Shown in pieces: positions 4,254 through 25,718 of a DNA stretch of 64,000 nucleotides (within the stretch, counting starts at the first letter, position 1; the number at the start of each line of letters is the position of its first letter). A program made the translations under genes and the position numbers. Source of the stretch: Halocafeteria seosinensis (taxonomy: Eukaryota); contig LVLI01000198.1 in assembly GCA_001687465.1 (NCBI GenBank), positions 1 to 64,000 of the forward strand, written 5' to 3'. The notes beneath the pieces were generated by a model. The model saw nothing but the letters and a program-made list of their open reading frames with translations, was not told the DNA's origin and made no database searches.

Positions 4254-4497
4254 TTTATTCTTTGTATTCACAAAGGGCTTAGTGTCTTTACAGTGTTCCA
4301 ATGGGACTGCACAGTATCTGACTTCCTCTTGTCTGTCTGACTTCCTTTCGTGTCTCCGAAAGTCAATACAAAAAGACAAACAAAAAAAGGGCTACAACAA
4401 TATACTTTTGGTATCGTATGCCAGATACATTTCACTACAACGTCAGTACATCTGCGATTCTCTCTCTCTTTATCAGTGTATCGTGTAGCTACAACAC
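4149..4497. repeat. ~340-bp diverged direct repeat, copy 2
   Basis: Aligns by eye with 1983-2320. Confidence 0.9.
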
Positions 4498-4711
4498 CTA
4501 CCTTTCTTTTTCTTCGAAGTTGCCCCTTCTTCAACAAACTCGAAATTCCTCGAATCGCTCGATACCTTAACTTCAACTTGGCAGCAACAATCCGATCTTC
4601 GTCATAGTCAGTCAGTCATTCACGCCCTTTTGGCCCGTATTACCACAGCTGTTATGTTGTTGGATTGAGCCCTGGTAGGCAGTGTAGTAGTGGGTGCATA
4701 GTCCGTGTGCG

Positions 4712-7700
4712 ATGGCGGCTCGTCGAGGCCGGCAACATCATCGATTTTAATCTGCTCTTGCTGGAGGAAGGGGAGTATTTCTTTGATGTACGTGTATATT
4801 AGCTTGCATACCTTGCTCAATGGTTGTGTTTATTCGTGTGGACGTCTGCAGAATTATGTGGGGGTGGCGTATATCACCTCCAAACAGAACCCGGTTCCGG
4901 CGCAGGACTCGGACGATTCCGAGGAGGAGGAATCCCGGGGGAAGCATGATACAATTGATTTGTCGAAGGGCAAAGGAAGTCAACAACAGCATATTATTCA
5001 CGCACAACCGGATGTACGCAATGGATACTTTGGGTACCTGAAAGTATGCTCCCGAGGCATCTACTTTGACCCGCATGATCCAGCCATACCGGTGTATCGA
5101 TTCAGGTACAAGGATATGGTACGACAGCCTCATGTGGAGTGGAATCCACCGGGGTGCTGCTCGAACGACTTGGTGACGACGGCTGAAGGAGGGAGAGATG
5201 CCGGACCGTGTATCACGTTTTGTATCTCAGCCGCTACGACGATGAAGCGAAACTTCCGAGTAGAACCCTTCGGAACTGAAGTATTACCTCAATCCTGCTA
5301 TCAGTATATCGCTGTTCCGTTTGTGCAAAGTGCTAAAGAGGAGCTTTTACCCTTCATTACGCGGCTGTATGAGATAAATGCGACAATCGGTCGGGGTGAT
5401 TCCATGAAAGAGCAACAGCTATTGGACGATGTCTTGAAGGAGCGCCATCGAGGCGAATTCGATTTGATGTTGCTTCAGGATGAAGATGAACGACCTCTAA
5501 TGTCAGCTACCTCCCCGTGGTTAGTGGAACGGGTCGAACCGCTGGTCACCTGCAATGGGCGTCTTTTCGTGTCTAACTCAGCTGTGTATTTCCAGCAGGT
5601 CAATATCAACAATGTAGATTCCTCAGGGTCGTCTTCAAGCCAAAGCAAGAGCTTGAGTGACTCCAAAACACTTAAATGGCCACTGACATCTATTTCGCAG
5701 ATTTTCAGACGAAGGAGACTACTCCGTGAAATTGGGTTGGAAATTACTTTCCTAGGACGACATACAGGTACAGAGGATGATAGTGATAGTAGCTCTGAAG
5801 AAAGCGATCATAGTGATGAAAATCACCGGGAACATGGCTCCAAGCGAAGAAGCCACTCCTCGTCCAAAGAGAGTGCTGCGCATGTATATCGTGCAGATTT
5901 TTCCAGCACGGGATTGACTACCCAAGCTCAAACTCTAGGAATGCACACTGGTTACGCAGTCTCGCGCAAGAGAGGGCAATCCAGGCAGATAAGGGCGGCA
6001 GCAACAGCTTTGTCCAGTACCGATGTCAGTACAGCCGTCGATATAGTCAACGGGGTGTTCTTGAGCTTTTCAACACCATCTGCCCGTGATGAAGCGTACA
6101 CGCTAATTCATGAAGCGTCCAGCATTGCGAAAAGGAGAGAAGCTTTACTAGCTCAAACAGGGCAGTCAAAGAGTCGGGGCTCTTTTGCGAGGCGGAAAAA
6201 GAAATTACCGGAGTTTCCAACAACAGCCAGTATTCATGTTCCTCCCCAACGACGCCCGGGAATCTTCGACAAAGACGTCATCGACAACATCCAGAAGGCG
6301 AAGAAAGCGTGGGTTGAAGGATGCCTATCTAACTATGAATATCTCTGCCTTTTGAACTATGCCGCTGATAGAACACCTTTAGATATCACACAGTACCCTG
6401 TGTTTCCTTGGATCATTGCGGACTATGAGTCTGAAAAACTAGACCTGGAAGATCCGCAGACATTTCGTGATCTTACCAAGCCTGTAGGGGCCTTGAACCA
6501 AACACGATTGTCCAAATTTCGTGAAAGAATGCACGAAATGCCACCAGAAGGGGGAATGGACGCGCCGTTTCTCTACGGTACTCACTATTCTACCCCTGGT
6601 TACGTTTTGTACTACCTCATTCGAGGCGCTCCTGAGCACCAGCTAAAATTGCAAGCCGGGAGGTTCGACAGTCCTGATCGCCAATTTTACAGCATAGCGT
6701 CAACGTGGAAAGGTGTCACTGGAACCGGCCCCGATGTAAAGGAACTGACCTTTGAATTCTTTGATACCAAGTTTCAGCTTCTTACCACCAAGTCTAAGTT
6801 GAAGCAGTATGGTTATGCAGTTCACCCTTCTTCCTGGCTGGATAATCCAAATGGCGTTCCTCTGGGCATTAAGAGCGACGGTCGATCCATTGATAATGTT
6901 AAGCTACCTCCATGGAGTAACGATGATCCAGCACAGTTTGTTCGACTGAATAGGGCTGCTCTCGAAAGCGATTATGTGACCCACCGTCTTCATCACTGGA
7001 TCGATCTTATTTTTGGGTTCAAACAACGAGGAGAGATGGCTCGACGCTCCGACAATGTCTTTCATCCAATGACTTATGAAGGGGTCGTTGATCTGGAAAG
7101 TGAGACAAGCCTTGAACGTCGCATTAGTTTGCAAGCCCAAATTGCTGAGTTTGGACAGACTCCCCGTCAACTCTTCAACCAAGCCCATCCTTACTATAGG
7201 GGTGCGTCGATTCCTGTACATGTTCCTCCAAAACGGCATACGGTACATAAAGCACAAGAGGGAGAGGATAGCTCTGTTTGTCAAGGAGAATCCGCATCCG
7301 CAGAACTTGCACAAACAGAAGTCTCTTCTGCAGAGGATTCCAAAGAGAATAGTCCTTCCAAGACCGCAGAAACAAGTGTCAGTACTGCCGGGGCTATGCA
7401 TCTAAAAAGCTTCAGTAGATGGTGGACTCCTGTTTCCCTATGTGGTGAGGATAGGCCACTTCCTGAAAAGGCCGTCCCAAAGAAGAGAGGTTCACCCTCG
7501 CGCAGTAAGGGAGCGAGTGAGGACACTGAGAACAAGCTACCGCCTTTGGAATTAAACTCCCCAGTTCAAGAAACAAACATGGTGTGGCCGGTAATTCACC
7601 GAGGGTAAGTGATAGCCGTGATATCGTTGTTGTGTCCGTTGAAGACGGTATTCGTCCTTGACCCTGCAGACGTTTGATGTCTATTGCCTTTCTTAAGGGA

Positions 7701-9248
7701 TTACAAAGCCTTGGAGGTGGTGTCATCGACAGATCTGTCGCGTGCACCATAGGAGAAGATGGGATGCTATGCTTGCTGGACGTTTCATCCGAACTGGCTA
7801 AGGAGTGCTCAAATACCACGGACTATCATGAATCCATGGGGCAGCGCATCCAGAAGCGACAGGACGATACAATAGAACACCCAGATATATCGGATCTTGT
7901 TTCCGACGACGAAGGAGATGGAGCTGCTATTTATAGAGACCGATTTCTGCACTGTGAATGCATTAGCAATTGTTGTCTTTACTGCCAAACGCGCATTCCT
8001 ACATGTCGTCTTGATACGCTAAGTCTGCTTTGCCCTCCAAACGCGCAAAGCCCCCGCCAGTCTCTTGTTCAGCAGCACGAAACCATGGCAGTTGGAGACG
8101 GAAATGGATCCCTTCACTTTTTTGATGCTGTCTCACGTCGCAAAACAAGCTCTTTCCAAAATTTACACACTGGAAGAATTGCATGCGTCGACTCTGCGGT
8201 TATTTCTTTTTCGGTGGGAAAGTCGTCGATGCCTATACCGTTGTTGCTTGCAACAGGTGGAGCCGATGGGTTGCTTAAGGTTTTTCCGATCACGCGAACG
8301 GGATGTTCGAACGGATCGGTGGAAATTCATGACTGTAGCACTAAGAGCGGAGGAAAGCCCTCTCTCTCTCTTCCAGATGCTCAATCTCCCATCACAGCCG
8401 TCGTGTTTTGCCCTCCAGAAACTGAATCACCCCTGTCTACCGAGGTTCCCGTACAATCCATTCCTCAATTGTTGTACAGGGAGCATAGGAGCTTGCCTGA
8501 AAACGTAGATCCGAGCAGCAACGTGAATAGCTTAGGGGTATACGGAACTGCGAGAGGAGCGGTGGTATGGTTCGACCCTTTTCGATCAACGGAACATGTC
8601 GTTGCCACTAGTACAAGTCTTGTTCAGCCTGTGCCAGATGGTCTTTCGGTCGCTAATGGGAATGTCGGTATCACGTCGATAAAGTGGGCTGGAACAAATG
8701 GCCGCGTTGTTGCAGCATCTGGCAGCGGCCGTATTGGGATTTTCTCGGAACAGGGTATTTGTAGTGGCATTCTTACGACAGGAGATGTTCCCCGGGCTCT
8801 AGATTTACCGCAGCCGATCCACAGCTCAAGGCAAGGCACGGAGGAGACTTCAGCGGAGTCATGTGTATTTGATGGCCCCATGCAGCATAGTACTGTATGC
8901 AGCGTAGGCTCGTCCTCTTGTGCCCGGTTTTGGGACATCCGGAATTTATGGTCTGAAGTCACGATTGCGCAGTCAGCCTCGTCTCGTAGGCCGTCAAAGT
9001 CTTCGAGTAAACCTTTTCAAATGTTATGTAGCTCAGATTGTGAGTTGTACAACATTGCCTGTCAAGAGCTCGTGCTAGACCTTAGTGGTCAACTAGGGCA
9101 GAATACCAAGAGAGAAAACAAATTTAGGTTGGATCAACAGCCTATCGAGAACTGGTCAACCTGTATAGCCTTGGAGAACCGTAATCGAGTCCTCGCGGTT
9201 GGCACAGAGAATGGGCGCATATGTGTCTGGTTTAAAAAGTTCAATTGA
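4712..9248 (+). CDS. NSMAF: FAN-like PH/GRAM-BEACH-WD40 protein; exons 4712-4787 (contains a +1 frameshift), 4852-7604, 7670-9248
   Basis: N-terminal RF-NLLLLEEGEYFFD. BEACH motifs TQYPVFPWII, FRDLTKPVGALN, YGTHYS, LHHWIDLIFG and FGQTPRQLF. WD40-like C-terminus. Introns 4788-4851 and 7605-7669 are phase-consistent. Confidence 0.85.
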
Positions 9249-10037
9249 GCTATCAAGTCTTGAAAGAATAATACAATTCGAGCTCTCGCTCTATCTACGT
9301 TGACATTGATGAATCGATAAACGAACTGACTGAGGGCATTGAGGGATGGGTATCGTTCGTGGGCGAAAAGAAAAGAAGAAGAAGAAAAAATAAAAGGAGC
9401 GCGCATCGCTGTAGCATCCCATGCCGCAGGATAGCGAAGGCTGCGATGGGATTTGCAGCGCTCCCCTCTCGATTTAAGCAAACTTTTCCGCGTAGACTTG
9501 ACAAACTGGTCGCCAAAAATCATGGTGTATTACAAGCTGCTGCCAGGGCAACAGAAAAGACTTGTACTATTTCGCTTGAATTTTTCCTTGAGACCGCGAC
9601 TAGAGTTTAGTACTAGACTCCATGTGGCGGGTTCTATGGAGTTACAAACCGTTTGACTACGGTAGGTTCAGGAAGAGGTTGTAAATATCAGGACACAACT
9701 TCTCATGTGCAATGTCTATTCGTGTCGTCGGTGGTAGGTAGTAACCAGACTAGGATTGTAAGGTAGGGTTCTTAGATGTTGGCGTCGTGTGTACTGTGGT
9801 AACTACGGGTTGTACTGAATAAAAAGAAAGAGTGGCCCATACAACCGGAATGAGTGGCCGGGTGGTCTAAACTTGAGAACATCCATTCCTTGGTGGATTG
9901 ATATAATCGCGCTCTCAATTCTACTCCTACAACACGTATTATCGGTACCAATAGATGGAGTATAAGTGAACATGACCGCCTGGCCTTCATCATGCATGGA
10001 AGCATTCCCCTCGCCCTTGAAGAAGTAGCAGGAGGAG

Positions 10038-11902
10038 ATGTCCTCGTGGTCATGTAAGTTTGGTCTCCCCCAGTCCTCAGGTAGCTATCCCTCATTCTGG
10101 TTTTCCATGCTGTGCAGCACCGAGGCGTTCAGGGCCATCATCAGCTGCAGCTAGAGGAGGTGGTGGGAATCGGCTGCAACAAGGTAAAGACTGGCCAGCC
10201 TTCAGAATGTGATGTGATATGATGGAATGGAATGGAATGTTTTTGTTTTGCACAGCTGCTGAAAGGACCCTTTCGGTAGAGGATGCATTGACCTTGTTGA
10301 GACACAAAGGGTTTGATCCCAGTGAGTACAGTGAACTCGTCAATGCTGCTGCTAACGAGGAGGGCGTGATTGACGTCCCGGGGTTGTTGGAATCCTCCGA
10401 GGAGACTGTCCTCACCAAGGTGTTGGCAGATGGTAAGCGATAAAATTGCGCGTGTCCTGATACGTCATGCCGACGAGGAAGCGTGAAATCTGCATGCGCG
10501 CAACAGATCTGGTCATCTCGGATTGGAATTCCTTCACGGCAGACATTCAAGACATCTATGAACATGTAGCCTCCCTCCCGAATTCAGGCAAGAATGCCGA
10601 CTACATCCCCATTTTGGCGGAACAAGATGAAAACGCTTTTACGGTGGCGGTGTGTACTGTGGATGGCCAGAAGTTCTCCTACGGCAATACTGACTCGACC
10701 CACTGCTTCAGTATACAAGCAGGCATCAAGCCCTGGATCTATGCAGCCGCTGTCGAACAGCATGGCTTGAAAAAGGTCCACAGGCATACAGGAATCGAAC
10801 CGAGTGGGCTCGCATTCAACGAAGTTTCACTAAATGCATCGAAACGGCCACATAACCCAATGATAAATGCTGGAGCGATTGCAACTGGGTCCTTGGTACG
10901 CCCCGATCTCGACATGGCTGGGAGATTCCGCTTCTTTAGGAAGCTTCTAACTGATGTTGTTGGTGGAGAGAAAATCGGATTCAGTCAACCCACGTACTTG
11001 TGCGAACAAGAAACAGCCTGGCGGAACAATGCGCTCATGTACTACATGGACAGTGCTGGTATCTTCCCCGAGGATGCAGATCCTCGACAAGCCCTTGACT
11101 TTTACTTCCAGATGTGCTCCATTGAGGTAAATCCTCAAATGGCTGCAAATGCGGCAGCAACACTAGCCACTGGTGGAATTTCGCCTCTGACTGGGAAAAG
11201 GTGCTTCTCCCCTTCCACGGCTAAATCTTGTCTGACGTTGATGTTTAGCTGCGGGATGAATGACTATTCCGGAGAATGGTGCACTAAGATAGGATTGCCT
11301 GCGAAATCAGGAGTAGGCGGAATAGTCTATGTTGTGATACCACACGTTATGGGGATTGCCGTTTATTCTCCGCCAGTAGATGCTCACGGCAACAGTGTAC
11401 GCGCTGTCGAATTCTTCAAACGCTTACTGTCGGAACATCGACTGGGTATTTTTGACCAAGTGGTTTCTGGCATGCAGTCAATGGATATACGACAGAGCAT
11501 GAAGCAGTCTAGGCCAACTCGATCACGGAGCTTATTCGGAGAAATTCCATCAAATTCCGATCGGAAGCCGATGTGTCACTCCACCAAGAGATCCTCGACT
11601 GATGAAGCTAACCCTCGCAGTCCTCTCTGTTTGGACCGAAATTGCTTATCTCAGCTCAATGATTCAGGATCATCGCCTGTTGACAGGTATGAACGCCAGA
11701 AAGGCTTTGTTGGGAAGACAAGCGCGGTGGATGAAGCATGCGCCTCCGGAATGATTTTGGAGAGATGGAAGAACGTGCTTCGGAGAATGGGACGATTAAA
11801 GCGGAATCTACACATGATCCGCGAGTGGTGTCGGCATACGTTTCGTGCTGATATTGACTGGTTTGCTTGTGAAAATCGCATTAATAGACGACCTAGATTA
11901 CG
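10038..11902 (+). CDS. GLS: Two-domain glutaminase-like gene, 5' half (glutaminase domain 1); exons 10038-10053, 10118-10183, 10256-10432, 10507-~11829; interrupted by an insertion
   Basis: Motifs ADYIPILA, VCTVDGQ, TGIEPSG, PHNPMINAGAI, FYFQMCSIEV, GLPAKSGVGG and GNSVR. Three phase-1 introns of 64-74 nt. The 3' boundary is uncertain. Confidence 0.8.
11893..11902 (+). repeat. Left direct repeat CTAGATTACG (TSD/att-core candidate)
   Basis: Exact match to 16321-16330; read as L-D-Y in the open frame at both sites. Confidence 0.75.
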
Positions 11903-12651
11903 AGGAATGGTGTCGGCTGCGGCAACAAGCTGTCACATTGGAGATGGGCGTCGCCCAACTGTCATGGAAAAGCACGCTGCTTGACTACGGACGCCACAAC
12001 ACGTGTTTCCGCTTGAGTGACGTACAGAGGAACGGCTTGCTGGACTTCCGTTTCCGCCACGTTGTGGCGCCGCAATTGAACGCGCAGCAATTCGTGCGTC
12101 CGCCGGCCTGACATCTGTTCTTCGCTCGGAAAGCCTTCCATCCAGTCAGTCAACGCGTACGGTTCGGTGTCGTCCAACGTTTCGGCTATGGGAGGGTTCC
12201 CGTCCTGGAATCGAGATGGGCACTTTACTCTTTGTTCCTTTGGTCTGCACCGAGGCGGGCAAAGAGGCCCGCTATGTGTTTCAACTACACACGGCGACCG
12301 AGACGAACACCTACCGCGTACCGATGGGCAGAAGCGAGCTGACCGATACCGTCTCCGAATGGCTCGACGCTTGTTACGGGGGCTGTGGATTGGGTCTAGG
12401 AGAAGAGGCCAGTTTCCTCGGCATGCTCAAGTCCCCCCATGCGCGCAAAGTTTCTGTCTGCGTTTCCACTCGCGACCGTGTTTTTTCTCGACCAGTCTGT
12501 CCTCCACACGCGTCCGCATGCGTGCCAAAGCACGTTCCTGCTGGACGGTGCGCATGGTGGGAGATGGGTCCTGCAAGAATCTTATGTCCGTAAAACGGAC
12601 GTTCCGCATCTTGCTTTGTTTTATCTGATTTGCGGTCTGCACGGCCATTGA
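11893..12651 (+). CDS. Element gene A, 3' portion (orphan); predicted exons 11893-12093, 12150-12449, 12496-12651
   Basis: Frame open from the left repeat (LDYEEWCRLRQQ...). Phase-0 intron GTGCGT...CTGAC...TCAG (56 nt) and a weaker 46-nt intron link three ORFs. Confidence 0.4.
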
Positions 12652-12732
12652 TTGCGGATCAACCAGCCAGCCGCGATTCTCGTTGGCGGGGGTGGCCGGT
12701 GTCGTTCGGGTTTTCTTTTATCGCATAACGTT

Positions 12733-14207
12733 TTAAATGATGTGCACCACGCATACATCACTTGGAATACATGCGCCGTTGCGGTCCATCACCGTAGCCG
12801 CTTCCTGCATGGGAACCATGGGCGACGTTTCCGCGAATGTCGTCACATACCGTGTCCACGGGACAGGAGATTGTTCCGTCTGGTAGCATTCGTCGCTCAT
12901 ACGTTCCCACTGCGATTGATGATACGCCACGTTGCCCATCGTCGGCCATCGTTCCTCTTGGTACGGAATGGGCGGACGACGATACGCCGAGAGGCGTCTT
13001 CGTCGGACGGACAAACCCGGAGCGTCGCAGTATCGTCGTCGTGCCGGAGTCCCGCTGGTCTATCGCGTGCGGACGAAGCCAGCCACTTTCCGTTTCAGGA
13101 CAATTATCGAAAACTGACGCGACATAACACGCGAAGCGTCAGCAAACATGTCCCATTTCCGCATTCGTTGCATCGATCGTACATTTCCTCGGACGTCTTC
13201 TTTTCGCGGTCGATCAATTGGCGGTTTCACGTGTACCGCAGCGCACGGTGGAAACGGCACCATGCCCAGTTCGCCGGGCACGAACATGCGGAACCAGCCC
13301 CCCGACGAAAAAGCCCTCGCAAACGGAGGCGCGTTTCATTGCCGTAAGCCGAGTACTATACGTATCCTCTTGTGGAGGAAGAAAGACGGACCGCTTACTC
13401 GCACGGCACGATGCGCCTCTCCGTCCGGTTGTACAGTCGCCGTCTCAGGCGTTTTAGACGGCAAGAAAACAGGAAAACTCCGGAAAGGAGGACGGAGAGG
13501 GCGCTGCACATGAAACCGAGCAACTGCTGGCTTAGCGGTAAAATTCGGCCCTGCAGTGTGGCGTACAAAGTCCATCCCCACAGACAAGAGGCAACGAGAA
13601 ATATGTCCGCTGCCCATAAAAAAAGCATCGCCATCAAATGGCTGTGCGGTAGTGTTGTTCCCCACGTGCACGTAGCGTAAAGATAAAAAATTGATGAGGC
13701 AGGTGTACGGAAGCCGAAAGGTTCTTTGCTCCATAAAGTGTAGACAAGGTACACGTTTTCCCAAAACACGACCACAGAACTAGCCAGAATCCATGCAAAA
13801 AGCGATTGTTTCATTGTTTCTTCGAGATCTTGCGTGGGGGGTGCCAGACGGGTGTACAACCGCAATCCCATAGCTCCGGCGTATATGATGGTAGGCGAGA
13901 AAACAACACCTCCCGCAGCTATTCCCCACAAAAGTCCCGCTGAAACGCACAACACTGCGTAGACCGCCAAGAGAAGCCACTGAAAAGGCTTGGCGATGAT
14001 GTTCGCACACGTCTTTAGAAACGACGACGAGCCCCGCGATGATTGCAGCCCCACGAGAGAAAGGGGCTCTTTTTGGGCCAAGTCGGTCAGATGGGCAAAA
14101 AATCGCCGGTAGGTCTCTCCATGGAACGGATTCGGAGGAGGCTCTCGGGCCACGTAAAGACCGTTGTCTGAGGTTACAGGGACGATTCCCACTGTCCCTC
14201 CGTCCAT
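12733..14207 (-). CDS. Element gene B: orphan multi-pass membrane protein; main exon 14207-13399, possible further exons 13355-13247, 13199-13119, 13059-12733
   Basis: ~270-aa exon with about 5-6 hydrophobic segments (e.g. WLLLAVYAVLCVSAGLLWGIAAGGVVF, LFAWILASSVVVFW). A GTAAGC donor overlaps the apparent stop. Three phase-consistent introns of 43, 47 and 59 nt reach the ORF ending at 12733. Confidence 0.5.
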
Positions 14208-14369
14208 AATGAGGAAGTCACCGAGTGGATTCGCAAACAAACGTGCTGTTTTTCTTCTGTGGAACAAAAGTGAGCGTGTCGTCAAAAGGCAGGAAGAAAG
14301 ACGAGATAAAGCAGTGGAAGACCACGCTCTCGCGAACTGGTACAGCCTGGAAATCCCTTTCTCCCCGAA

Positions 14370-15017
14370 ATGAGCGACCGTTTCATCCCCCAGGCGGCGT
14401 CCACGGCGATTGAGCTCATGGAATCGCTTCGCTCGCGCTACAAGCCGCCCAAGACAGGCAAGGCCAAGAAAACGGTGCGGGAGCGTCTGCGGGCCCAGCA
14501 GCCGAACAACGACCACGACAAGATGGAGACGGCGTTGGCCGAACTGCGGCAGTTGCGCGACAGCACTCATTACCGGTACTTTTCCAATCTGGAGTGGCAG
14601 CGCCGCATGACCATTGGCACTAAACGCGGCAAACACGATCGGCGGATGCGTCGATCGTTTGGTATCACGGACGAAGAGTTTGAGACGTACGTCAAAGAAT
14701 TTCAGACCCTCTTGCGCAAGCATTCGGTCACACCCCCTGACGCTGTCTCGCTACCGTCGTCCGCCCAGGGCGCTGACGAGACAGCGTTGCAGCACCCGTC
14801 GGACATCTCGCTGCAGTCGTTCCGGGACGTCCTGTGCGAAGACGGATTGTCCGGGGGAGCAGCGGGAAGCGAAAGATCAAATTGCTCGCGTCCGTCAACG
14901 GCGGCAACGAAATCTCCATTTCGTATCCCGCGATGCAACTTCCTTCAAAACTCCCCCTGTCGGTCGGCTATAACATCGTGGCCATGTCCCTGTACAACCA
15001 TATCAGCTGCCAGCTGA
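14370..15017 (+). CDS. Element orphan ORF, basic/helical N-terminus (possibly the first exon of gene A)
   Basis: 215-aa ORF with GC-rich codons and a K/R-rich N-terminal half (RYKPPKTGKAKKTVRERLR). Its tail overlaps the next ORF in another frame. Confidence 0.5.
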   Translation: MSDRFIPQAASTAIELMESLRSRYKPPKTGKAKKTVRERLRAQQPNNDHDKMETALAELRQLRDSTHYRYFSNLEWQRRMTIGTKRGKHDRRMRRSFGITDEEFETYVKEFQTLLRKHSVTPPDAVSLPSSAQGADETALQHPSDISLQSFRDVLCEDGLSGGAAGSERSNCSRPSTAATKSPFRIPRCNFLQNSPCRSAITSWPCPCTTISAAS

Positions 15018-16320
15018 ACGGTACCAGTTACGCCTACGATTTCCCATCCGCGCAGGTTTCGACGTCGGGCCCATCGAGCATTTCGTACAAAATGGCGCCC
15101 CACATGAATGCCCCCGATGATGATGATGATGATAACGTGTCCCCGGACACGCTGACATTGAAAGGAATGGCGCCCCATGCGTCGTTGTCGGACAGCGCGT
15201 CGATCATCCTCCCGGGCCACAGCTCCGGAACGCAGTTCGAAGCAACGCTGGAGAAAAGTTTCAAAACATTTCCCATCGTCACAGTGGACGGGTTGATGTT
15301 GGACGACCCACGCGTGTACCCACCCTCCGGCTTGTCAAACAAGGGGCAATACTGCTTCTTCTCGGCACAGTCGAGCGATGGAACCTCGGTCTTTTCGATC
15401 TATTACGACGCCGCCAAGAAGAGCTTCATCCTGCAAGCCAACGGAACGGCAAAGCAGCTCAAAGAGCACATCTTTACAGAACTGATGGTGGGGGCGCCCT
15501 CGGCGTTCAACGTGGAGTGGGAATCCCAGCAAGGCGGGTCTCTCTTCCACGTCAAGACGCACCGCGGAGGACCATCGCAGCGATTGACGTTCCCGAACGT
15601 GGCCGCGCCGTCCGCGCCCATCCAGCGCCTCGTTCTGGGGAATGGAGCGAACGCGAAGCACGCTGGACTCGGAATGCGCGTGTTCGGGCGATTCGGCGTG
15701 GCGTTTCCCGGCCAAGCGTTTTACATGTTTTTGCCGAAAACCATCCGGAACAACCGCCACCACAAATCGTTCACGACCAACAACATGTACAAGTGGAACA
15801 AAGGAGAGCTTCACATGTCATCACCCGCCGCGACGCTCCAGTACACCATTGTGCGCTCTGTGTCGTCCAAGGGGGGAGAAGGAGGCGGGGGTGCGTCGCA
15901 GCAGTTCCCGCGCGGAATGCACGGGATTACCCGACCGTCTGCGCGGGCGATGCTGACGGACCCGTCCGGGTCGTCGTCGTCGAGCCACCCCCAAAAACCG
16001 CCGTCGTCGCCCCGGGTGCCGTCGATCGCGATCCCCCAAAAGTGTATGGTTTTTTCTCGGAGAAATTGATCGGCCACAAGCCATGGGTCTCGTTTCCGTT
16101 GCAGATCCGTGCCAACAAAGCGGCGACGTCGGACGTATCGATGCGCTGCCTGGACCGGTGCGACGTTTGTGAAGATTGTCGGACTCGTTCGTTTTGTGTT
16201 TAGCGTGCACGATTCGCGTTGGATTGTACCAAAGCACTCCAAAGAAAAAGTCTCGGCGCGCAAGGGAAGGCTGAGTGTGATACAAATATTGAAGGCGGCG
16301 GTGCGTTCCAATGGATACGG
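14834..16320 (+). CDS. Element gene A, 5'/central portion: orphan, apparently beta-rich protein; predicted exons ~14834-16043, 16105-16157, 16204-16320
   Basis: 411-aa ORF. Introns GTATGG...TTGCAG (61 nt) and GTGCGA...TTTAG (46 nt) carry the frame to the right repeat (...FQWIR-LDY). The start is uncertain. Confidence 0.5.
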
Positions 16321-16330
16321 CTAGATTACG
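16321..16330 (+). repeat. Right direct repeat CTAGATTACG
   Basis: Exact match to 11893-11902. Confidence 0.75.
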
Positions 16331-18375
16331 TTTATAGGTTGCTGGCCGAATGCGGTGTGGGCCCGGTGGATGAGAAACACATGCCCGTGCTGCATTACAC
16401 TCTGAAAAATGTACGTGCTCAGAGCCAGGACATCCTCGAAAAGTTATCGAATGCTGCAAAGAACAGAATCAGAGGAATTGCTACCAAAGGGACTTCAAAG
16501 AAACTAGCAGCAGCCGATTTCGACAGCATCTTGGAAGATTTGATTCCGAAAGCACCGGATGCATTTAACTTTGGATTGGATTTACAAGCCCTCGTATCAA
16601 ATGTTCAAGATTCCTTATTGCGTCGAAGTTGGTATTACCCGTCGGCTACGGAGAGAATCTGGCAAAACACCCGTTTCAAAACGGACTCTGCTCCGGATTT
16701 GACCAAGCGATGTTCGGGTTTCGGAAAAGGCGAATATGTTTACATCCCGTTCCTTTTCGAGGGAGATAGCTCCGGTATTCTTCCCCGCGCATTCTTGAAT
16801 AAAATGGCGTTTCCTTGGTTTAAGTCTTTCTGTGGGGAGATGAGGTCGATTGCCTCAGTAATTAGGAAGGATCTGACCGGAGGTAAACTTCCTGCCGAGG
16901 AAGTGCCCGCTGGGATATCGCGCAAGGAGTCAACAGCTTCTCAGGACACAAGGGCGACTGAAGAGCGAGCACCTAACTGCAAGGGAGCAGTGTACACCGG
17001 AATTCCGATTGAAGAGCTGATAAATGCTGATCCGCAAAACTTTGGAGTCGCCTTTTGTACCATAGACGGACAGCAACACAGCTTTGGTGAATCTCGAATG
17101 GATTTCCCCCTTATGTCTGCTGTACAACCACTTCTTTACAGTCTGGCTCTGAAGGAAGTCGGAGTCAAGGAGACTCAGGCATGGACCGGGACAGAGCCCA
17201 CTAGTACAGATCCGTCATCGTTCTCATTGCGTGAGAACGTCCCTGAGCCACAGTGCTCCGATAAAGGAGTAGAACAACCTTCGCGGATTCCATTCAACCC
17301 GTTTATGGACACAGGGGCCTTGCAAACGTGTGCTCTGATTGGGGGAGCCCAACGGAGCAAGCAGTTTCCTGATGCTGGAAGTCGATTCCTGCATTTGATA
17401 AAGCACATTGGTGCTCTTTGTGGAAACCGACGCGTAGGCTACAACAATAGCGTGTTTTTAGCCCAAAAAGAGAAACGGCTCCAGACGCTGGCGGTCTCAC
17501 ATTTTATGAAAGGCATGGGTGCTTATCCGCGTGACACAGATCCGACGGACAACGCCCATCTACTATTTCAAGCACAAAGCGTCGAACTGAACTGCGAAAA
17601 ACTTTCGATAATCGCCGCTTCCCTGGCGAACTTGGGAGTGTGTCCCACAACAGGCCAACAAGTTCTTGGCAATGAAGAACTGATAAGCCTCTTTTCATTG
17701 ATGTATAACTGTGGCCTTAACCAGTACACTGGCACTTGGACTTTCAACGTCGGTTTACCAGCTACCACTGGTGTTTCTGGTGCATGCATGGTGATAATCC
17801 CCAACATAATGGGCATTGCGATCTACTCTCCGGTACTCAACGAATGGGAAATACCTCCTGCGGCCTTGAAGTTTTGCGAGAGTTTAACGAGCAGGTATAG
17901 GATTAACATTTTTGATCAGTTAGTTTACCGTAATGAGGAGTTAGACATTCGCTCAGTCGAGGAGGAGCATAACGAAGACTTTTCATCTCTGTCAGAGACC
18001 CAGAAGTCTACTCTATTGTTTTTTGAATTGTGTACTTCGGCGAATTCTGGTTCGATAGAAAAAGTGAGACAAGCAATGGAAGCGGGCGTGGACATTAATA
18101 GATGGGACTATGACCGTCGGACAGCGTTACACATTGCAGCTTGCAGTAGCCATGTGGAGATTTCTCAATTGCTAATCAGAGAAGGTGCAAATATCTTGAC
18201 TCGAGATCGGTGGGGAAGCACTCCATTCGATGAAGCTATGCAACATGGTTCAACAGAGTTGATCGAACTTTTTGAGCAGGAGATGGTGCGCCAGAATATC
18301 TCCTCCAAAGGCAGCTTGGCTAGGGGTTTAGCAGGCTCAGGTTCCGCTGACAGGACTGGGGTGTATGGCCGATGA
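16321..18375 (+). CDS. GLS: Two-domain glutaminase-like gene, 3' half (degenerate glutaminase domain 2 plus ankyrin repeats)
   Basis: Motifs FGVAFCTIDGQ, GTEPT, PFNPFMDTGAL, GLPATTGVSG and IPNIMGIAIYSP. Ankyrin motifs DYDRRTALHIAAC and DRWGSTPFDEA as in kidney-type GLS. The ORF-track start at 16219 is a TTG, not an ATG. Confidence 0.8.
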   Translation, partial: LDYVYRLLAECGVGPVDEKHMPVLHYTLKNVRAQSQDILEKLSNAAKNRIRGIATKGTSKKLAAADFDSILEDLIPKAPDAFNFGLDLQALVSNVQDSLLRRSWYYPSATERIWQNTRFKTDSAPDLTKRCSGFGKGEYVYIPFLFEGDSSGILPRAFLNKMAFPWFKSFCGEMRSIASVIRKDLTGGKLPAEEVPAGISRKESTASQDTRATEERAPNCKGAVYTGIPIEELINADPQNFGVAFCTIDGQQHSFGESRMDFPLMSAVQPLLYSLALKEVGVKETQAWTGTEPTSTDPSSFSLRENVPEPQCSDKGVEQPSRIPFNPFMDTGALQTCALIGGAQRSKQFPDAGSRFLHLIKHIGALCGNRRVGYNNSVFLAQKEKRLQTLAVSHFMKGMGAYPRDTDPTDNAHLLFQAQSVELNCEKLSIIAASLANLGVCPTTGQQVLGNEELISLFSLMYNCGLNQYTGTWTFNVGLPATTGVSGACMVIIPNIMGIAIYSPVLNEWEIPPAALKFCESLTSRYRINIFDQLVYRNEELDIRSVEEEHNEDFSSLSETQKSTLLFFELCTSANSGSIEKVRQAMEAGVDINRWDYDRRTALHIAACSSHVEISQLLIREGANILTRDRWGSTPFDEAMQHGSTELIELFEQEMVRQNISSKGSLARGLAGSGSADRTGVYGR

Positions 18376-18871
18376 TTCGGTGTCAGTGTGGTCGCAAGTT
18401 CCTTTAGGGCGAGGACACCATTTACCGATAACTCTCCGCCAGTAGTTGCTCACGGTAACAGACAGCGAACGCGCGGTGCGTCTCCGCAACATCCGGCACA
18501 TTGAAACTGGGTCGTGTTGGGGAGACCTAGGCGTAGGCGCAGTGCTACCATGTATGTACGCGGCGTCGGTTAGTGTAAATCGTTTCCTTGGTGCTGTTGG
18601 TGGTGTGTACGAACTCTCCCCTTGCACAACAAAAACGGAAGCGTCTCGTCCTGTGCTATGGAAAAACACACGAAGGCGAGAGATGTCAACTGAGATGGTA
18701 GACTTGATATTCCCTTTCTGTGCGTGCCTTAACTGAACGCTATGCTGACAACTTATCTATGTAATTGACCAGTATTGAATCACACGACGTATACTACCAC
18801 TACTACCCTCACGCCACGCGGAGCGCAATCTTCCTGACTGCTGACTGACACCGACACGAAATCTGTGGGTT

Positions 18872-18923
18872 CACAGACAGAGACAGACAGACAGACAGAC
18901 ACACACACACACACACACACACA
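18872..18923. repeat. (CAGA)n(CA)n microsatellite
   Basis: Directly visible tandem repeat. Confidence 0.95.
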
Positions 18924-19090
18924 TGGAAAGCCTAACCTACTGACATTAGTAGTAGATTTGATAATGCTACCCTGATTGTGTAGATCATCTATCTATCCGT
19001 TGTTGTTGTATGCGCCTACTCACTTTCCCAACGTCCGAAAGATCTTCCGCCATCTACAGTATATTCGCGTTGGAACTTTTACTCTCTACA

Positions 19091-21847
19091 ATGTCATACC
19101 GACGACGGTCAGGCGAAGTCTCCGAGCCCTCTTCATGGCTGTCCAAAGCTGCTGTGCTCTCTGGGAGCTCGGTGGTGGCTGCTATCGTGTATTATTACGG
19201 TCGGAAAGCGGCTCTGAAGTGGGCTCTGGAGGCTGTCGATACTCAAGACAAGCCTAATCCTCTTGCCGTATTGGTGCTCAAGTACCTCTCGCCGCGGGAC
19301 CCTAAGCTGTACGATATGCAGGAGTATCTCCCTCGTCTGCCATTGCCGTCGGTGGAAGAATCAATGAGGAAATACCTGGAGAGTATCCGGCCGCTTGCTT
19401 CGGAAGACCAATTCCGCCACACCAAACAGCTCGTAAATGAATTTGTGGGCTCCAAGGAAGCCCAGGAGCTTCAGGCAATCCTCCAAGAGAAGCACCGAAC
19501 CGAACCCAACTGGGTAGCGGAGTGGTGGATGCGCTTTGCGTACTTGCAGGGCAGAGATCCGCTCCCGATTAATGTCAGCTTTGCTGGATTCGATACCGTA
19601 TTCCAGCCGCCACCCACCAAGAACCAGGTAAGCTACGTGTCGATGCAGTTTAGCTTCCTCCTTCACTCAATTACCAACCGACGACTACGCGTGGTGCCAC
19701 GTTTGCAGGCCCTTCGAGCAACTGGGCTGATTGTCGGGACCATGGACTTTTATCGACGAGTTGTCATTGACAAAGATATACCGTGTTTGCGCATGAGTAC
19801 GTGGAAGGATATTCCTCAGCCACAAAGGCCGCCGGTGATTATTCATCTTCATATACTGCTTGTAATTGTCGTTGAATTTGCAGATGGATTCGTACCAGTT
19901 GATATGGATGGATATAGATCGCTCTTTGGAACAAGTCGCTTGCCTGGTACAACCTGTGACTCCATCCAAACGTTTTTGCCCAAGAAGGGAGAAGCGGCGC
20001 ACATTGTTGTAATCTACGGTTCAGCCATGTACCAAGTGCAAGTCCAAGACGAAGGTGGGGTCAAATTTATCATATTGACGTTTCTCCTTCGCTGTGCGTT
20101 CTTCATCGCCTGTAAATGCAATCCAGACGGTCACTTTACGCCGTTCGACGAGATGTACAGCACCATTTCGGAAATCATGAATCAAGTAGAAAACACTGGG
20201 CTATGGGTCGACCCTTCGGTTCCAACTCTAACCACGGGTATGTTTTGTCCTCTTTCCACGAGCGACCACTATCGGGTACGGACGTTTTTTCGCAGAAAAC
20301 CGCACTACATGGGCAAATGCCCGGGAAATCCTTGCCATGCGGCCTCAAAATTCACAAAATTTGGATGTCATCAATAAGGCGTTGTTCGTGGTATCTCTTC
20401 ATGAGGAAGAAGCACCAGAAGATCTTGACTGGATAGGAAGGTAAGAATGCAGTCAAGCTTTCCAGTGGAATGCTTAATTTGTACAAGCAACCATCTGCGC
20501 TCATGCAACAGTAAAATGTGGAGAGGCGACGGCAAGAGGATTTGGTATGATAAAAGTATAAATCTATTATGCTTTGCAAACGGTCGCTCCACCCAAGTAA
20601 TTGAACACTCCTTCGCGGATGCTCCCATCGCGAGTCATCTGATTGAGGGGCTCTATCTTCACGAACAGAAGAAACTTCTCGAGGTGTATAAAAAGTGGGA
20701 ACATAGTAACGGGCGCCCGGCACCGCCAAGCACTCCGTATTACCGTTTACGATGGCATTGGAGTCAGACACTGGACAGCTTCGTGAATACTGCTCTCAAG
20801 AGTTACTACCAGTTAACCTCCCGAGTAGCTTCAAGGTGTGTTCAGTGATAAATGAAAGGTGGGATTCCAACGGGCTGTCATGTTTTAGCGGTTAATTCAG
20901 GTCTTACATAAATGATGCCTACGGAAAAGAAGATATCAAGTCTTACGGCCATGTACGTCAGTTGGTGGGGAAATACGTTTTCCACAACCCTACAAAGGGC
21001 GGTATGTTGTTTACGACGAAATGCAGCCTCCCGATGCGTTCATCCAAGCAGTCCTCCAATTGACATCTCTCCGCTTCCATGGACAAGCTGTACTTACCTA
21101 TGAGTCAGGTAAGAGGGCAGCATTGCTGTCCCGATGTGAGTAGATACACCTACATTTTGTGGTGCGCAGCGTCCACACGTGCCTTTTACTTAGGCAGAAC
21201 GGAAACCATACGGTCGGCAACCAATGAAGCCACTGAATTTGCAAGATCAATGCTTGACAGCTCACTTTCGCAAGTACGTATGCTGCCGGAAACGGACAAG
21301 ATACCCAGTACGTAACATGGAACTCCCTACAGCAAAAACGCCGTGAGCTTCTTGCTAAAGCTACGAAGAAGCATCGCCAAATCACTATGGAGGCCATGAA
21401 GGGGCGAGGTGTAGACAGACACTTGATGGGCCTCAAGCTGGCCGCGGTTACATCCGGACGGGATATTCCAAAAGTGTTCGAGGATCCAGCCTACACGCAG
21501 CCCTACCGTTTGAGCACCAGCCAGACTCCCTTGATTCAAGAAAACCTGGAGTGGCTAAACACCCCAGAACTGGTTAGTACTGTTTATAGCTGCATTTCAC
21601 ATTTGCCACTGAAAACCTTTGCATTTTGGCCGTGCAGTGCGGGGCGGGTGGTGTTTTTGGCCCAACGGCGGACCCCGGAATAGGCTGCAGCTACCACGTA
21701 ATGAAGGACCGGCTATACTTCCATATGAGCGCACGAAGCTCGGCGCCTGAGAAAGACGCACAACAGTTCAGAGAGTCTTTAATGGAATCACTTCGCGACG
21801 TAGCTTCCCTCTTCAAAGAAAGTGTAGCAACAGGAACGAAGTTGTAA
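19091..21847 (+). CDS. Carnitine O-acyltransferase (CPT1-like), multi-exon
   Basis: Motifs LPRLPLPSVEESMRKYLESIRPL, NWVAEWW, WYDKS, catalytic EHSFADAP, GRTETIRS, GRGVDRHL and LSTSQTP. N-terminal hydrophobic segment. The first five introns were checked for phase. Confidence 0.9.
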
Positions 21848-21859
21848 GGAGGAATTGTC

Positions 21860-23954
21860 CTACGAATTTCTCCATGTAGGTACCGCCTTACCGGTTCCTC
21901 GTCCCCCAAACGTGAAATCTAGTCCTCGAGAGTCTGCAGCCCTACTTTGCATCATGACGGGTCGCTCATGAGCACTATGTTGACGCGATTCAGCATTTTT
22001 CTCTTCCCTACTGTTACGCTCGCGATTCTTCCATGCAGTAGTTGGTGCACGCGCGCGATTTGGATCAGAATGAACTCTCTTCACCTTGAATAGCCCTGCG
22101 CCTTTGACATACGCTGTGTTATCCACCTGCTCCTCTACTTCAGAGTCGTTATCTTCGACTTCACTGTCGAACTTCTTCAAGATCATGCCTCTCTGGTCTC
22201 TCCTCGGGTCCAGGCTTTGTTCCTGACGGCGATGCGCTTCTTCCTGAGACTCGAGCTTCAGTTTACCCCTGGAGTGAGCGCTGCTAATTTGAGACTGAAT
22301 TCTCGACCGAATGCGCCTGCATAAACATAAACGGAATCAGTCTTGTGCGATGAGCATTGTTGTGGACGCCGCGTCGACATACTCTTTCTGTTCTGGTGTC
22401 AAATCTTCCCGTTCATTGCTCTGGTTATTCAATGTGCCCTCAATCCGTTTGAATTTCTGTTCCTCGGCTTTTTGAGCCGCACGATATTGGGCCAAAGCGG
22501 CTTTCTGAGCAGCACGCCGCCTTGCTTCTTCCTGCTCTTTGGCGATTTCCTTCTTGGTTTTTTCTTCATACTGTTTATGCTCTTCTTCTTGGCGCTGGCG
22601 GGCCTTTTCGGCTTTCCAGCGTGCAACTTCAGCCTTTTGCATGGCCGTTTTGTTCTTGAGTTTGGCTAGTTCCTTGCGACGCTCCTCTTCCTTATTAGAG
22701 GTCACCTCTTCGACTTCTCCCTGTAACTCTTCCTCCTTCTTTCTTCGCTGAACCTGTTTCCATTCATAGATTATGTGACGCTTTTTATCCAACAGAGTGC
22801 AGTATACAAGGAACCAGTCCAAGTGGCGATTGCACTCGTCCAAAGAACGATCAGGAATACGCAGGTGCACCTCCTCCGCAATTTTCTTTCTTTGTTCTTT
22901 CGTTGGTTCAGGAGTTTTCTCGGAGTTGGGATCATTGTCAGAGGAACCATGTAGAGCTTGCATCAGTGAGGGCTGATATTTCTGCACAACCGCAAGGAAC
23001 ACTTCATGCTCATCATCTCTCCAGTTGCCGGTTTCGCCCCCGTTCCTCTGGATTCGTCGGTTCACTTTCTCAACTCGTGACCGAAAGTCGGCTTCCTCAG
23101 TTTCCTCTACCTGTTGAGCTTGTTCATTTCCTTGCTTCAGCGGGGGTCCAACGTTCCCTTGATTAGCAGGAGGTGGCGGTCGAGACGGCTTGGTGGAATG
23201 CTGCTGGGGCAGGGCCTCTCCATTCGTTGCCCGTCGATGTATTAATTCTTCCTCGTCTTCTTCGACTTTGGTATTGAGCTCCCGGAGCTCATTGTTTAAA
23301 GTCTGTTCCTCGTTTGATATCTTGTCGAAGTCTTTCCGTGCTTCATTGCGTACTTTGTCGAGACTTTCCTGCAGTCAAAAAGGAAAAATAATAACAAACC
23401 GAATGACGAAAGCGAAAAATGCACAGTCCAGTATATCCAATTCCAATCCCAATTCCAATACATGTCAGAAAGCTTGCACATCTTCTAAATTCACTTACCG
23501 CAATTCGTTGTAAAGTCTTCTTAACTCGAGGGACATATCCTTCTTCCGCCGCTCGTTCATCGAACACGTACATCTTTAGCGCATAGCAGTCAGCCTGAAG
23601 CAAAGAGGCAGTATTCTCAATACTTAGAAAGGATGAGGTTACGTAAAAAGAGTTAAATGTACGTACTTTAATGCTCTTAAGCTTCTGAAAAAGCTCTCTA
23701 GTGTATCTTTCCCTGGCCGATTCAAGGCTTTTTTGATACTTTTCACATTCAGAGACGATCTGAGGCTCCAATGTGCGCAGACTCCCGCTACTCTGAGAAG
23801 TAGAAGAGCCGCTAGAATAGGGTATTATCCTCGTTAGTTCCTCCATACAACGCCTTTCCTCCTTCCGTAACGACTCCTGGACCTCCAGATACTGCTGCGC
23901 ATTCTCCACATTCCCCTCCTTCCCAGAGTGTCGGTATCCATTGCGCCCCTCCAT
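21860..23954 (-). CDS. CCDC112-like coiled-coil protein, multi-exon
   Basis: GGETGNWRDDEHEVFL and ECNRHLDWFLVYCTLLDKKRHIIYEWK resemble the CCDC112 core, followed by a long E/K/R coiled coil. Confidence 0.6.
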
Positions 23955-24219
23955 GTTAGTGAGTACATGCAGCCAAGAACATAAGACTCACTCTAGGAGA
24001 CGCTTTTACAGCCATAGGCAATCCACAATCGAAATTTCAAACTATGCTGCGCACTCAGACTTCAACTTCAAATGTGCTGGATGAGAAGTCTACAATATAA
24101 CACAAATTGTTACACAATGTATAAGGATATACCATGGGTCTGATTTCTCATGTATACTTTGATTTTTCACACTTTTTCGAGCATGTATACAGGAAGAAAC
24201 TACTAGTTTACCAAACGCT

Positions 24220-25718
<1,499 letters not shown>

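Follow-up and report, generated by a model that had tools for sequence, protein, structure and literature searches.

The two domains of a glutaminase gene in Halocafeteria seosinensis are separated by GC-rich DNA, which raises the question of whether foreign DNA entered a protist coding sequence at this locus and, if so, by what mechanism and from what donor. We addressed this question in the window, that is, the whole analyzed stretch of 64,000 nucleotides, using composition, homology, and contigs of sequencing runs.

Foreign DNA between the two domains of a glutaminase gene

A single piece of foreign DNA of ~4.3-4.4 kb, carrying orphan genes, sits in the linker that connects the two domains of a glutaminase gene and interrupts it. 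This segment (11893..16275, GC 56%, each end uncertain by tens of bases) has a GC content of 0.565 versus 0.474 elsewhere in the window and a CpG o/e of 1.28 versus 0.91; other 4.4-kb stretches in the window reach at most 0.498 and 1.04, respectively. Sliding composition bears out the initial annotation, which had described 4,428 bp of GC- and CpG-richer DNA here.

The host gene lies on the forward strand on both sides of the insert. Its 5' half (10255..11861; tblastn, Pfam) comprises the N-terminal part, domain 1, and the start of the linker; an intron in it (10432-10505, forward strand) is skipped in runs X2-X4, and its reading frame continues into the insert to a stop at 11982-11984. The 3' half (16276..18375; homology, Pfam) includes the remainder of the linker, domain 2, and ankyrin repeats, with the first usable ATG at 16381 giving 664 aa. 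Domain 1 matches PF04960 with E 4e-95, and Pfam confirmed the order initially read from the sequence, with domain 1 on the left and domain 2 plus ankyrins on the right of one strand. In tblastn, P0002 and P0003 match up to 11861 and P0004 up to 11855, with 60-66% identity from 10506/10566. These three, the closest homologues among those listed, are single proteins spanning both halves, and both glutaminase domains of the window cluster with them (FastTree support 0.99 and 1.0). As each of these homologues unites both glutaminase domains in a single protein, the two halves in the window come from one split gene. The grouping of the window glutaminase with Cafeteria sequences is loose, and JGI contigs yielded no glutaminase relative with DNA context.

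Four runs of one study were examined as contigs rather than raw reads, and contigs can hide rare forms. X1 is DNA-like and possibly the source of the window, whereas X2-X4, from two other samples, are spliced and were taken as RNA from GT..AG skips alone. The X1 contig covers 7164-18554 with neither a joint omitting the insert nor a loose end where insert and host meet, and its flat depth of 100.4, with none added at 80% likeness, indicates a single copy. The search for further copies suggested by the initial annotation found no second one in the run contigs. The contigs of X2-X4 bridge each junction as well, leaving out GT..AG introns, and a joint across the insert, as expected from splicing-out or from the empty-site allele that had been proposed, was seen in none of the four runs, including all three spliced ones. 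An assembly chimera or contaminant, a giant spliced-out intron, or two native tandem genes might be considered, given that a single study supplied every run and that contigs drop rare forms. We regard these explanations as highly improbable, because the DNA-like X1 and the spliced runs from two further samples bridge both junctions, the joint omitting the insert is missing from all four, and the homologues are single proteins; the original reading of foreign DNA within one two-domain gene, rather than a chimera or tandem pair, stands.

The interrupted gene is predicted to be dead with or without the insertion. In domain 1, an Ala codon (10719..10721, forward strand) occupies the position of the catalytic nucleophile Ser (human Ser286; QAGIKP versus QSGIKP/QSGVKP in P0002-P0004), and an Asn codon (11259..11261, forward strand) that of the catalytic Tyr (human Tyr466; CGMND versus CGMYD in P0002-P0004); catalytic roles of the equivalents of both residues have been described (PMC4929687). 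The catalytic Lys is missing from domain 2, in P0002-P0004 too. Neither domain shows the pattern of an active PF04960 glutaminase (the Ser-x-x-Lys dyad and the Tyr466 equivalent), and both are predicted to be inactive; the effect of the insertion on the host is thus probably small.

The junctions and the 10-bp repeat

The sequence CTAGATTACG has two exact occurrences in the window, both on the forward strand: a left copy at 11893..11902 and a right copy at 16321..16330. The initial annotation placed them exactly at both edges of the insert and proposed recombination through microhomology or an att core. The two exact copies are there, but the right one is within host coding sequence (codons L-D-Y), because the residues preceding it match P0002-P0004. 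QWIR just before it aligns with RWIP of these proteins, an equal score being reached by 16/8514 random insert peptides, and 4/8448 such peptides match the homologues as well as the 15 residues from 16276 do; this argument uses 3 homologues of the 120 listed, two of the three being mutually close. The right junction falls within 16200..16308, most likely at or before 16275, and homology resumes at 16276/16309. In the order-3 composition model, the 95% range of the right change point is 16168-16277 (lower orders are broader), and a junction at the 10-mer has P 0.005, compared with 0.33, 0.51, and 0.15 for orders 0-2. The alignments place the right junction probably at least 12 bases upstream of the right 10-mer, and probably 45 or more. 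The left junction zone is 11862..11920: homology stops at 11861, and composition change points lie at 11901-11946, with 95% ranges of about 11660-12055.

Entry through the 10-bp repeat, by recombination at an att core or by transposition with a Mutator-type duplication (the latter being 9-11 bp long), would account for an exact 10-mer with a chance probability of 0.2-1% and for the coincidence of its left copy with the composition change; bicosoecid Mutator elements without TIRs have also been reported. We nevertheless consider it very unlikely on three grounds: (i) host codons stand on either side of the right copy, so that host-like W-I (and C-D) codons would lie within the supposed element, (ii) the copies are 4428 bp apart, which is 0 mod 3, whereas frame restoration requires 1 mod 3, and excision at the 10-mers yields a frameshift and early stop, and (iii) the intron ending at 11887, initially invoked to rescue the frame, would delete conserved codons, overlapping RHTFRADIDW (0/8478) and ADIDW (8/8508), and RNA-like contigs run across it ungapped.

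Other elements were compared with the junctions in the same way. The 10-mer does not behave like the duplication of a TSD-making transposon, which borders the element precisely and leaves an intact target when removed. The longest inverted match between the end zones is 7 bp, that is, no TIR, and a Mutator/MULE transposase (Pfam) and further copies (X1 depth) are likewise absent. Tyrosine-recombinase elements (Crypton, DIRS, att-core) have a shared core at both junctions, host sequence only outside it, and a recombinase gene; this class was rejected because host codons are already present on the inner side of the right core and no recombinase family was hit. A circular form closed via the 10-mer was dropped, the right copy being host sequence. 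Helitrons have 5'-TC and 3'-CTRR ends and a subterminal hairpin, and insert between A and T. Here CTAG opens the left 10-mer, yet base 11892 is C and not A (by eye), the fold is no better than shuffles (z -0.74), and a Rep/helicase match is absent.

The probability of an exact match of at least 10 bases by chance is 0.2% for 50x90 nt, 1.1% for 100x150, and 2.7% for 200x200; treated as a local alignment score, the 10-mer has p = 0.10. Patchwork similarity of the junction zones gives p 0.03 for 5-mers including the 10-mer and 0.26 for 6-mers. Patchwork filler besides the 10-mer is not significant (next-best alignment p 0.72); thus, the 10-mer itself may be a chance match. The left copy is likely either filler from the opposite break end, that is, from host sequence past the right junction, or chance at 0.2-1%. 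Filler of the TMEJ type is expected to have at least 6 bases and to map close to the opposing break end; the 10-mer matches host sequence ~12-120 nt past the right junction, the junctions being fixed to tens of bases. As this locus shows, a tidy repeat on both flanks is not always a target duplication.

A shorter repeat, GGCTG at 11915-11919 and 16269-16273, could be a 5-bp target duplication left when a non-autonomous or truncated element, virophage/polinton-like or other, entered by integrase-type insertion; the 10-mer would then be chance. A cut at GGCTG restores the frame and leaves 21 residues between conserved anchors, the linker length of P0002 and P0003; the repeat falls within the composition ranges and is a candidate for a 3-6-bp duplication of the virophage/PLV type. 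Duplications of endogenous Cafeteria virophages are mostly 3-5 bp (PMC8547959), and LamG genes, of possible relevance to one insert ORF, are described for some bicosoecid virophages and PLVs (10.64898/2026.07.28.741278). We find this origin unlikely, since the insert has no TIR, one copy, no capsid, ATPase, protease, or integrase match, and a GC content above the host, whereas virophages and PLVs are below theirs. The GGCTG-joined linker also lacks similarity to the homologues (2081/8478 and 2582/8478), by hand estimate chance alone would put a 5-mer on any one diagonal in ~4% of cases, and two further frame-restoring, stop-free repeats of 5-7 bp are present.

Orphan genes of the insert

Three ORFs of the insert look genuine: those of a 270-aa membrane protein, of 215 aa, and of 361 aa. 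The membrane protein ORF (13395..14207, reverse strand) has four hydropathy peaks of at least 1.6 and six helices in a low-confidence AlphaFold model made without alignments (pLDDT 56.6). Its fold search returned generic helical pairs alone, BFVD yielded no fold match at E 0.001, and no relative was found among 950 candidates. Within it, a 63-nt segment between 11-bp inverted arms (13427..13489) is flipped in X1 compared with the window and X2-X4; the ORF stays open in either orientation, and the hairpin has z = -3.2. AAAAATTGA at 13686 is one of four occurrences in the window.

The 215-aa ORF (14370..15017, forward strand), for which homologue searches found no relative, has a GC3 of 0.77 over its first 143 codons, and its codon bias fades past about 14800. 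The 361-aa ORF (14984..16069, forward strand; 378 aa counted from ATG 14933) has a GC3 of 0.75; taken together, the two ORFs show GC3 of 0.70-0.76, compared with about 0.5 in the host gene. The 361-aa ORF bears a faint likeness to viral hypothetical and LamG/ConA-like Atlas clusters. The 378-aa form, the only query used against the representative library and the Atlas, has no relative among 1.84 billion representatives and an Atlas recognition of 2137, below the 2300 mark, with phage hypothetical proteins as the top clusters; its AlphaFold model without alignments is unusable (pLDDT 32.6). Read by eye, the starts of the three ORFs have a purine at position -3 and are not preceded by a Shine-Dalgarno-like run. 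The ORFs are dense and show no splice joint wherever contigs cover them.

In the left part of the insert, an ORF scan revealed protein-like pieces in changing frames (11878..12651, forward strand), including one in-frame TGA (12109-12111); they may be remnants of a decayed gene. No family or relative was found for them, an 11-residue match was judged to be chance, and no convincing long gene emerged when TGA was read as Trp.

Family and homologue searches agree with the earlier description of orphan genes only, with no recognisable mobility genes: mobility and virus families had no match above cut-off in Pfam, PHROGs, NCBIfam, and IMG/VR. Sub-threshold hits to endonuclease VII (E 0.58), EAST1 (E 0.02-0.04), and Rfam IRES_Bip (27 vs 40 bits) were rejected. 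The insert has no tRNA, no notable tandem array, and no excess of sigma-70 sites, and the whole insert has no blastn match in phages and plasmids. With one copy, no ends, and no mobility gene, the term element is unsupported. The proposed recent date is also unproven: the left third lacks an intact long codon-biased ORF, the 63-nt inversion varies between runs, and the host gene is without two catalytic residues.

RNA-like contigs of the 3' half start at 16064..16071 in all three spliced runs, a weak hint, from contigs of one study, of a new transcript start within the insert. Cover of 14400-16060 in X2-X4 is low and patchy, and unreadable as expression level.

Proposed capture by end-joining and comparison with known systems

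We favor, with about even confidence, capture of the insert by end-joining at a double-strand break over placement by an enzyme of its own. In present coordinates, 11862-11920 and 16200-16308 would have bounded the break. During joining of the polymerase-theta type, its left end may have copied 10 bases from the opposing break end and then been joined to foreign DNA, which would leave a displaced direct repeat. Fillers at foreign-DNA junctions in Arabidopsis trace to the opposing break end (PMC10923293). The insertion would have been tolerated since the gene was already, or soon became, dispensable; the 5' half would encode a truncated protein, and the 3' half may be transcribed from the start within the insert.

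The evidence on the donor is weak and points to a eukaryotic DNA virus as likeliest, most probably a GC-rich one absent from databases, with another eukaryotic source about equally probable. A viral or eukaryotic donor is favored by the dense ORFs lacking splice joints where covered, their GC3, their start contexts, and the viral or LamG clusters nearest in the Atlas. A virus as such has no sequence support: the Atlas recognition is below the mark, its top clusters are phage proteins, and AAAAATTGA occurs at three other places in the window. Capture from a cellular donor, either another eukaryote or a prokaryote or phage from prey or a cohabitant, is in our view fairly unlikely. It is consistent with the lack of a viral hallmark, with poly-Asp, poly-Gly, and poly-Ser runs, which fit a eukaryote, and with the phage hypothetical proteins among the top Atlas clusters. 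Cellular genes usually have relatives, whereas none was found for the 378-aa ORF or the membrane protein, and pattern scans of GTDB genomes, phages, and plasmids, which reach close relatives only, gave no match for the insert ORFs.

On the boldest reading, which we think unlikely, a hitherto undescribed GC-rich DNA virus or mobile element of heterotrophic protists, whose genes match nothing sequenced, left its first trace in this insert. It would have split the gene, donated a promoter to the 3' half, and carried a flippable 63-nt switch altering the tail of the membrane protein. If true, virus-driven gene fission into two separately transcribed halves would have been caught in one strain, and, if the donor was a virus, the three ORFs could serve as probes for an unsampled lineage. 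The locus offers one clean example of foreign DNA that entered a coding exon of a protist. The genes of the insert evade homology screens and would be missed by surveys of viral hallmarks; composition together with a split host gene reveals such inserts.

Protist proteins that combine two glutaminase domains with ankyrins (P0002-P0004; Cafeteria, Hondaea, Saprolegnia) share the domain order of the window gene at 55-66% identity and have a domain 2 without the catalytic Lys, whereas the window gene is split in the linker and its domain 1 has Ser changed to Ala and Tyr to Asn.

Giant-virus (Nucleocytoviricota) islands of Acanthamoeba likewise have orphan genes, few introns, GC shifts, pseudogene-like pieces, and patchy low RNA cover (PMC12210455). 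Dense orphan ORFs, few introns, and foreign codon use, as in giant-virus fragments, are found in the insert, although these features are not virus-specific. Unlike the islands, the insert has only 4.4 kb, lies within a host coding exon, and has no giant-virus or mirusvirus hallmark or best hit for any ORF; a 4-kb piece need not carry one.

Bicosoecid virophages and PLVs share with the insert a GC anomaly in a protist and, possibly, a LamG-like accessory gene and a 5-bp duplication. They are 5.5-25 kb long, multi-copy by type, below their hosts in GC, and flanked by TIRs of hundreds of bases, none of which applies here. They also carry capsid, ATPase, and integrase genes; general Pfam, PHROGs, NCBIfam, and IMG/VR profiles gave no match to virophage/PLV MCP, ATPase, protease, integrase, or pPolB.

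If the insert was captured as proposed, T-DNA captured by polymerase-theta-mediated end-joining (PMC10923293) and NUMTs are its parallels. Such captures likewise leave one copy with no element ends and no mobility gene; their junctions are imprecise, and templated filler gives one of them a short stretch matching the flank on the other side.

A split glutaminase gene and its insert

Glutaminase domain 1 lies to the left of the insert and domain 2 with the ankyrin repeats to its right, as the initial annotation had claimed. The three closest homologues (P0002-P0004) are single proteins aligning to both halves with 55-66% identity, so the proposed interruption of a single gene is upheld. They are also the nearest neighbours of both domains in a tree of the first 62 homologues and four chosen others, in which domain 1 falls within a clade including Cafeteria sequences (weak support, 0.72). 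The host, a eukaryote, is therefore probably a stramenopile-like protist. Two glutaminase matches occur in 87 of the best 120 long homologues, a length-selected set of 831-2370 aa. Sequence comparison thus indicates that one gene was split.

The decamer CTAGATTACG occurs twice in the 64 kb, at 11893 and 16321. The segment between the copies is richer in GC (0.565 vs 0.474 in the remaining window) and CpG (observed/expected 1.28 vs 0.91), as previously stated, and no 4.4-kb window elsewhere in the 64 kb exceeds a GC of 0.498.

The region is covered by contigs of four runs, all from one study. The DNA-like run X1, possibly the window's own source, provides a single 11.4-kb contig (7164-18554, depth 100.4) that skips no intron. 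At 90% likeness, its complete joint table contains no insert-skipping joint, and neither junction has loose ends; the suggested search for an empty-site allele was therefore negative in these contigs, which drop rare variants. Since depth stays at 100.4 in all bins of 9812-18443 at 80% likeness (among the joints, loose ends and pieces listed), no second insert copy was detected in the X1 contigs. Runs X2-X4 skip three upstream GT..AG introns (host introns are about 58-130 nt) and hence behave as RNA, a status not on record. Their contigs cross the boundary between the glutaminase exon and the insert, reaching 13690, 14378 and 14389, and others run from 16064-16071 onward through the 3' half, so that each junction is also spanned in two additional samples. 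The insert is genuine and present in one copy.

Several features were observed around the gene. Position 10046, the sole base difference listed in 7164-18500, is G or A between X3 and X4 (same sample) and differs in X1; it is a heterozygous or mixed site. X1 depth is ~100 for 7164-23762 and about 270-320, with many variants, for 4695-7193 and 23733-24287, and one X1 contig, with 25 other letters, links 4724 to 23733; the block of 16 kb that contains the glutaminase gene may be single-copy and the surrounding region present about three times. In each of the four runs, a short dispersed repeat at 18518-18596 is accompanied by numerous loose ends. Direct repeats of 340 bp (1983-2322 and 4149-4497, 74% identity) flank two minus-strand ORFs (2674-4391), the 345-aa one lacking a Pfam match; this is possibly an old mobile element. 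PH-BEACH (4702-7608) and WD40 (7662-9248) regions, typically one protein, occupy two frames 53 bp apart.

Junctions and mode of insertion

On the left, homology extends to 11861, across codons that a proposed frame-rescuing short intron would delete (0/8478 and 8/8508 random insert peptides score as well), and spliced contigs show no gap there; both observations contradict this intron. On the right, homology begins upstream of the decamer, with QWIR matching RWIP of P0002-P0004 (16/8514 random insert peptides score equally). A C-D twelve residues ahead of the W is matched in two of these homologues, and the 15-mer including C-D and QWIR is equalled by 4/8448; the 11 residues preceding QWIR are not significant alone (477/8472). 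Only 3 of 120 proteins carry the linker motif. An order-3 composition model sets the right change point at 16168-16277, agreeing with a junction upstream of the right decamer; lower-order models are undecided.

For the halves to be joined in frame, the cut must be 1 mod 3. The decamer copies are 4428 bp apart, and a cut there yields a stop within a few codons. An exact match of this kind is expected by chance in 0.2-1% of cases, which speaks for insertion at this repeat; as an alignment score the chance is 10%. With host homology preceding the right copy and the frame lost, such insertion is very improbable. The two exact copies stand, but the right one does not mark an edge, and we conclude from the alignments that the decamer repeat is not the junction. 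Three shorter repeats, of 5-7 bp, bring the halves back into frame and introduce no stop. With one of them, GGCTG at 11915/16269, the linker matches that of P0002 and P0003 in length, as expected for integrase-type insertion with a 5-bp duplication, but the joined linker has no residue similarity to the homologues, and we regard this mode as unlikely.

Capture of foreign DNA at a host break has roughly an even chance of being correct, and fits a single-copy insert with ragged junctions that shows neither ends nor an enzyme. The left decamer would then be filler, a 10-base copy of host sequence just past the right junction placed at the left junction. A study of foreign DNA and break junctions in Arabidopsis describes similar templated fillers mapping to the opposing break end (PMC10923293).

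Consequences for the glutaminase

In domain 1, Ala replaces the nucleophile Ser and Asn the catalytic Tyr, two of only three changes in 68 conserved columns (chance of hitting the active site, p 0.02-0.05). Alanine mutants at both positions reduce activity of the human enzyme (PMC4929687). The window lineage has no overall excess of changes (18 vs 17 in P0004), and neither gene half contains stops. The catalytic Lys is absent from domain 2 in the window (17008-17925) and in P0002-P0004; in all four sequences this is a conserved pseudo-enzyme domain. Because domain 1 lacks Ser and Tyr and domain 2 lacks Lys, the protein is predicted to be dead, whether before or after insertion.

Contigs of the 3' half begin at 16064-16071, adjoining GAAATTGA, which is one base off a giant-virus early promoter but also contains the stop of the 361-aa ORF. 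This hints at a new transcript start, which contigs from a single study are unable to demonstrate. Upstream of the usable ATG of the 3' half lie five others.

Insert genes and possible donor

Three ORFs look real: a hydrophobic 270-aa membrane ORF (13395-14207, minus strand) and two plus-strand ORFs of 215 aa (14370-15017) and 361 aa (14984-16069; 378 aa from the ATG at 14933), with GC3 of 0.70-0.76 vs ~0.5 in the host gene. The codon model is no test of the latter two, since it was trained on both. Within the left 1.5 kb, protein-like fragments occur in shifting frames and may have decayed. The searches run found no relatives of these ORFs, the deepest (378-aa ORF, phmmer against 1.84 billion representatives) giving 0 hits; the insert genes are orphans, as first described. 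The 378-aa ORF lies near phage hypothetical clusters (0.92, about 105/256 features) and a LamG cluster (0.90) in the Atlas, with recognition below the mark, which is a lead only. Searches of the insert likewise found no TIRs or mobility genes, and neither a tRNA nor an Rfam family above cut-off.

A 63-nt inversion with 11-bp inverted arms (13427-13489), flipped in the X1 contig but not in the window or X2-X4, changes the C-terminal region of the membrane ORF but introduces no stop; it reflects either true polymorphism or a choice made in graph cleaning. AAAAATTGA, the giant-virus early promoter motif, occurs at 13686-13694, one of four in the window and not above chance.

Captured foreign DNA in protists is already known as a kind; what is notable here is the wholly orphan gene set combined with a split exon. 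A narrow literature search, judged by titles and the openings of abstracts, found no such case. Odds are about even that the donor was a eukaryotic DNA virus. Giant-virus integrants of Acanthamoeba offer a parallel, being described as islands rich in orphan genes and poor in introns, in which GC shifts and fragments of pseudogenes occur (PMC12210455). In contrast, the insert is unlike bicosoecid virophages and PLVs, which have TIRs, core genes and GC below that of the host (PMC8547959; 10.64898/2026.07.28.741278).
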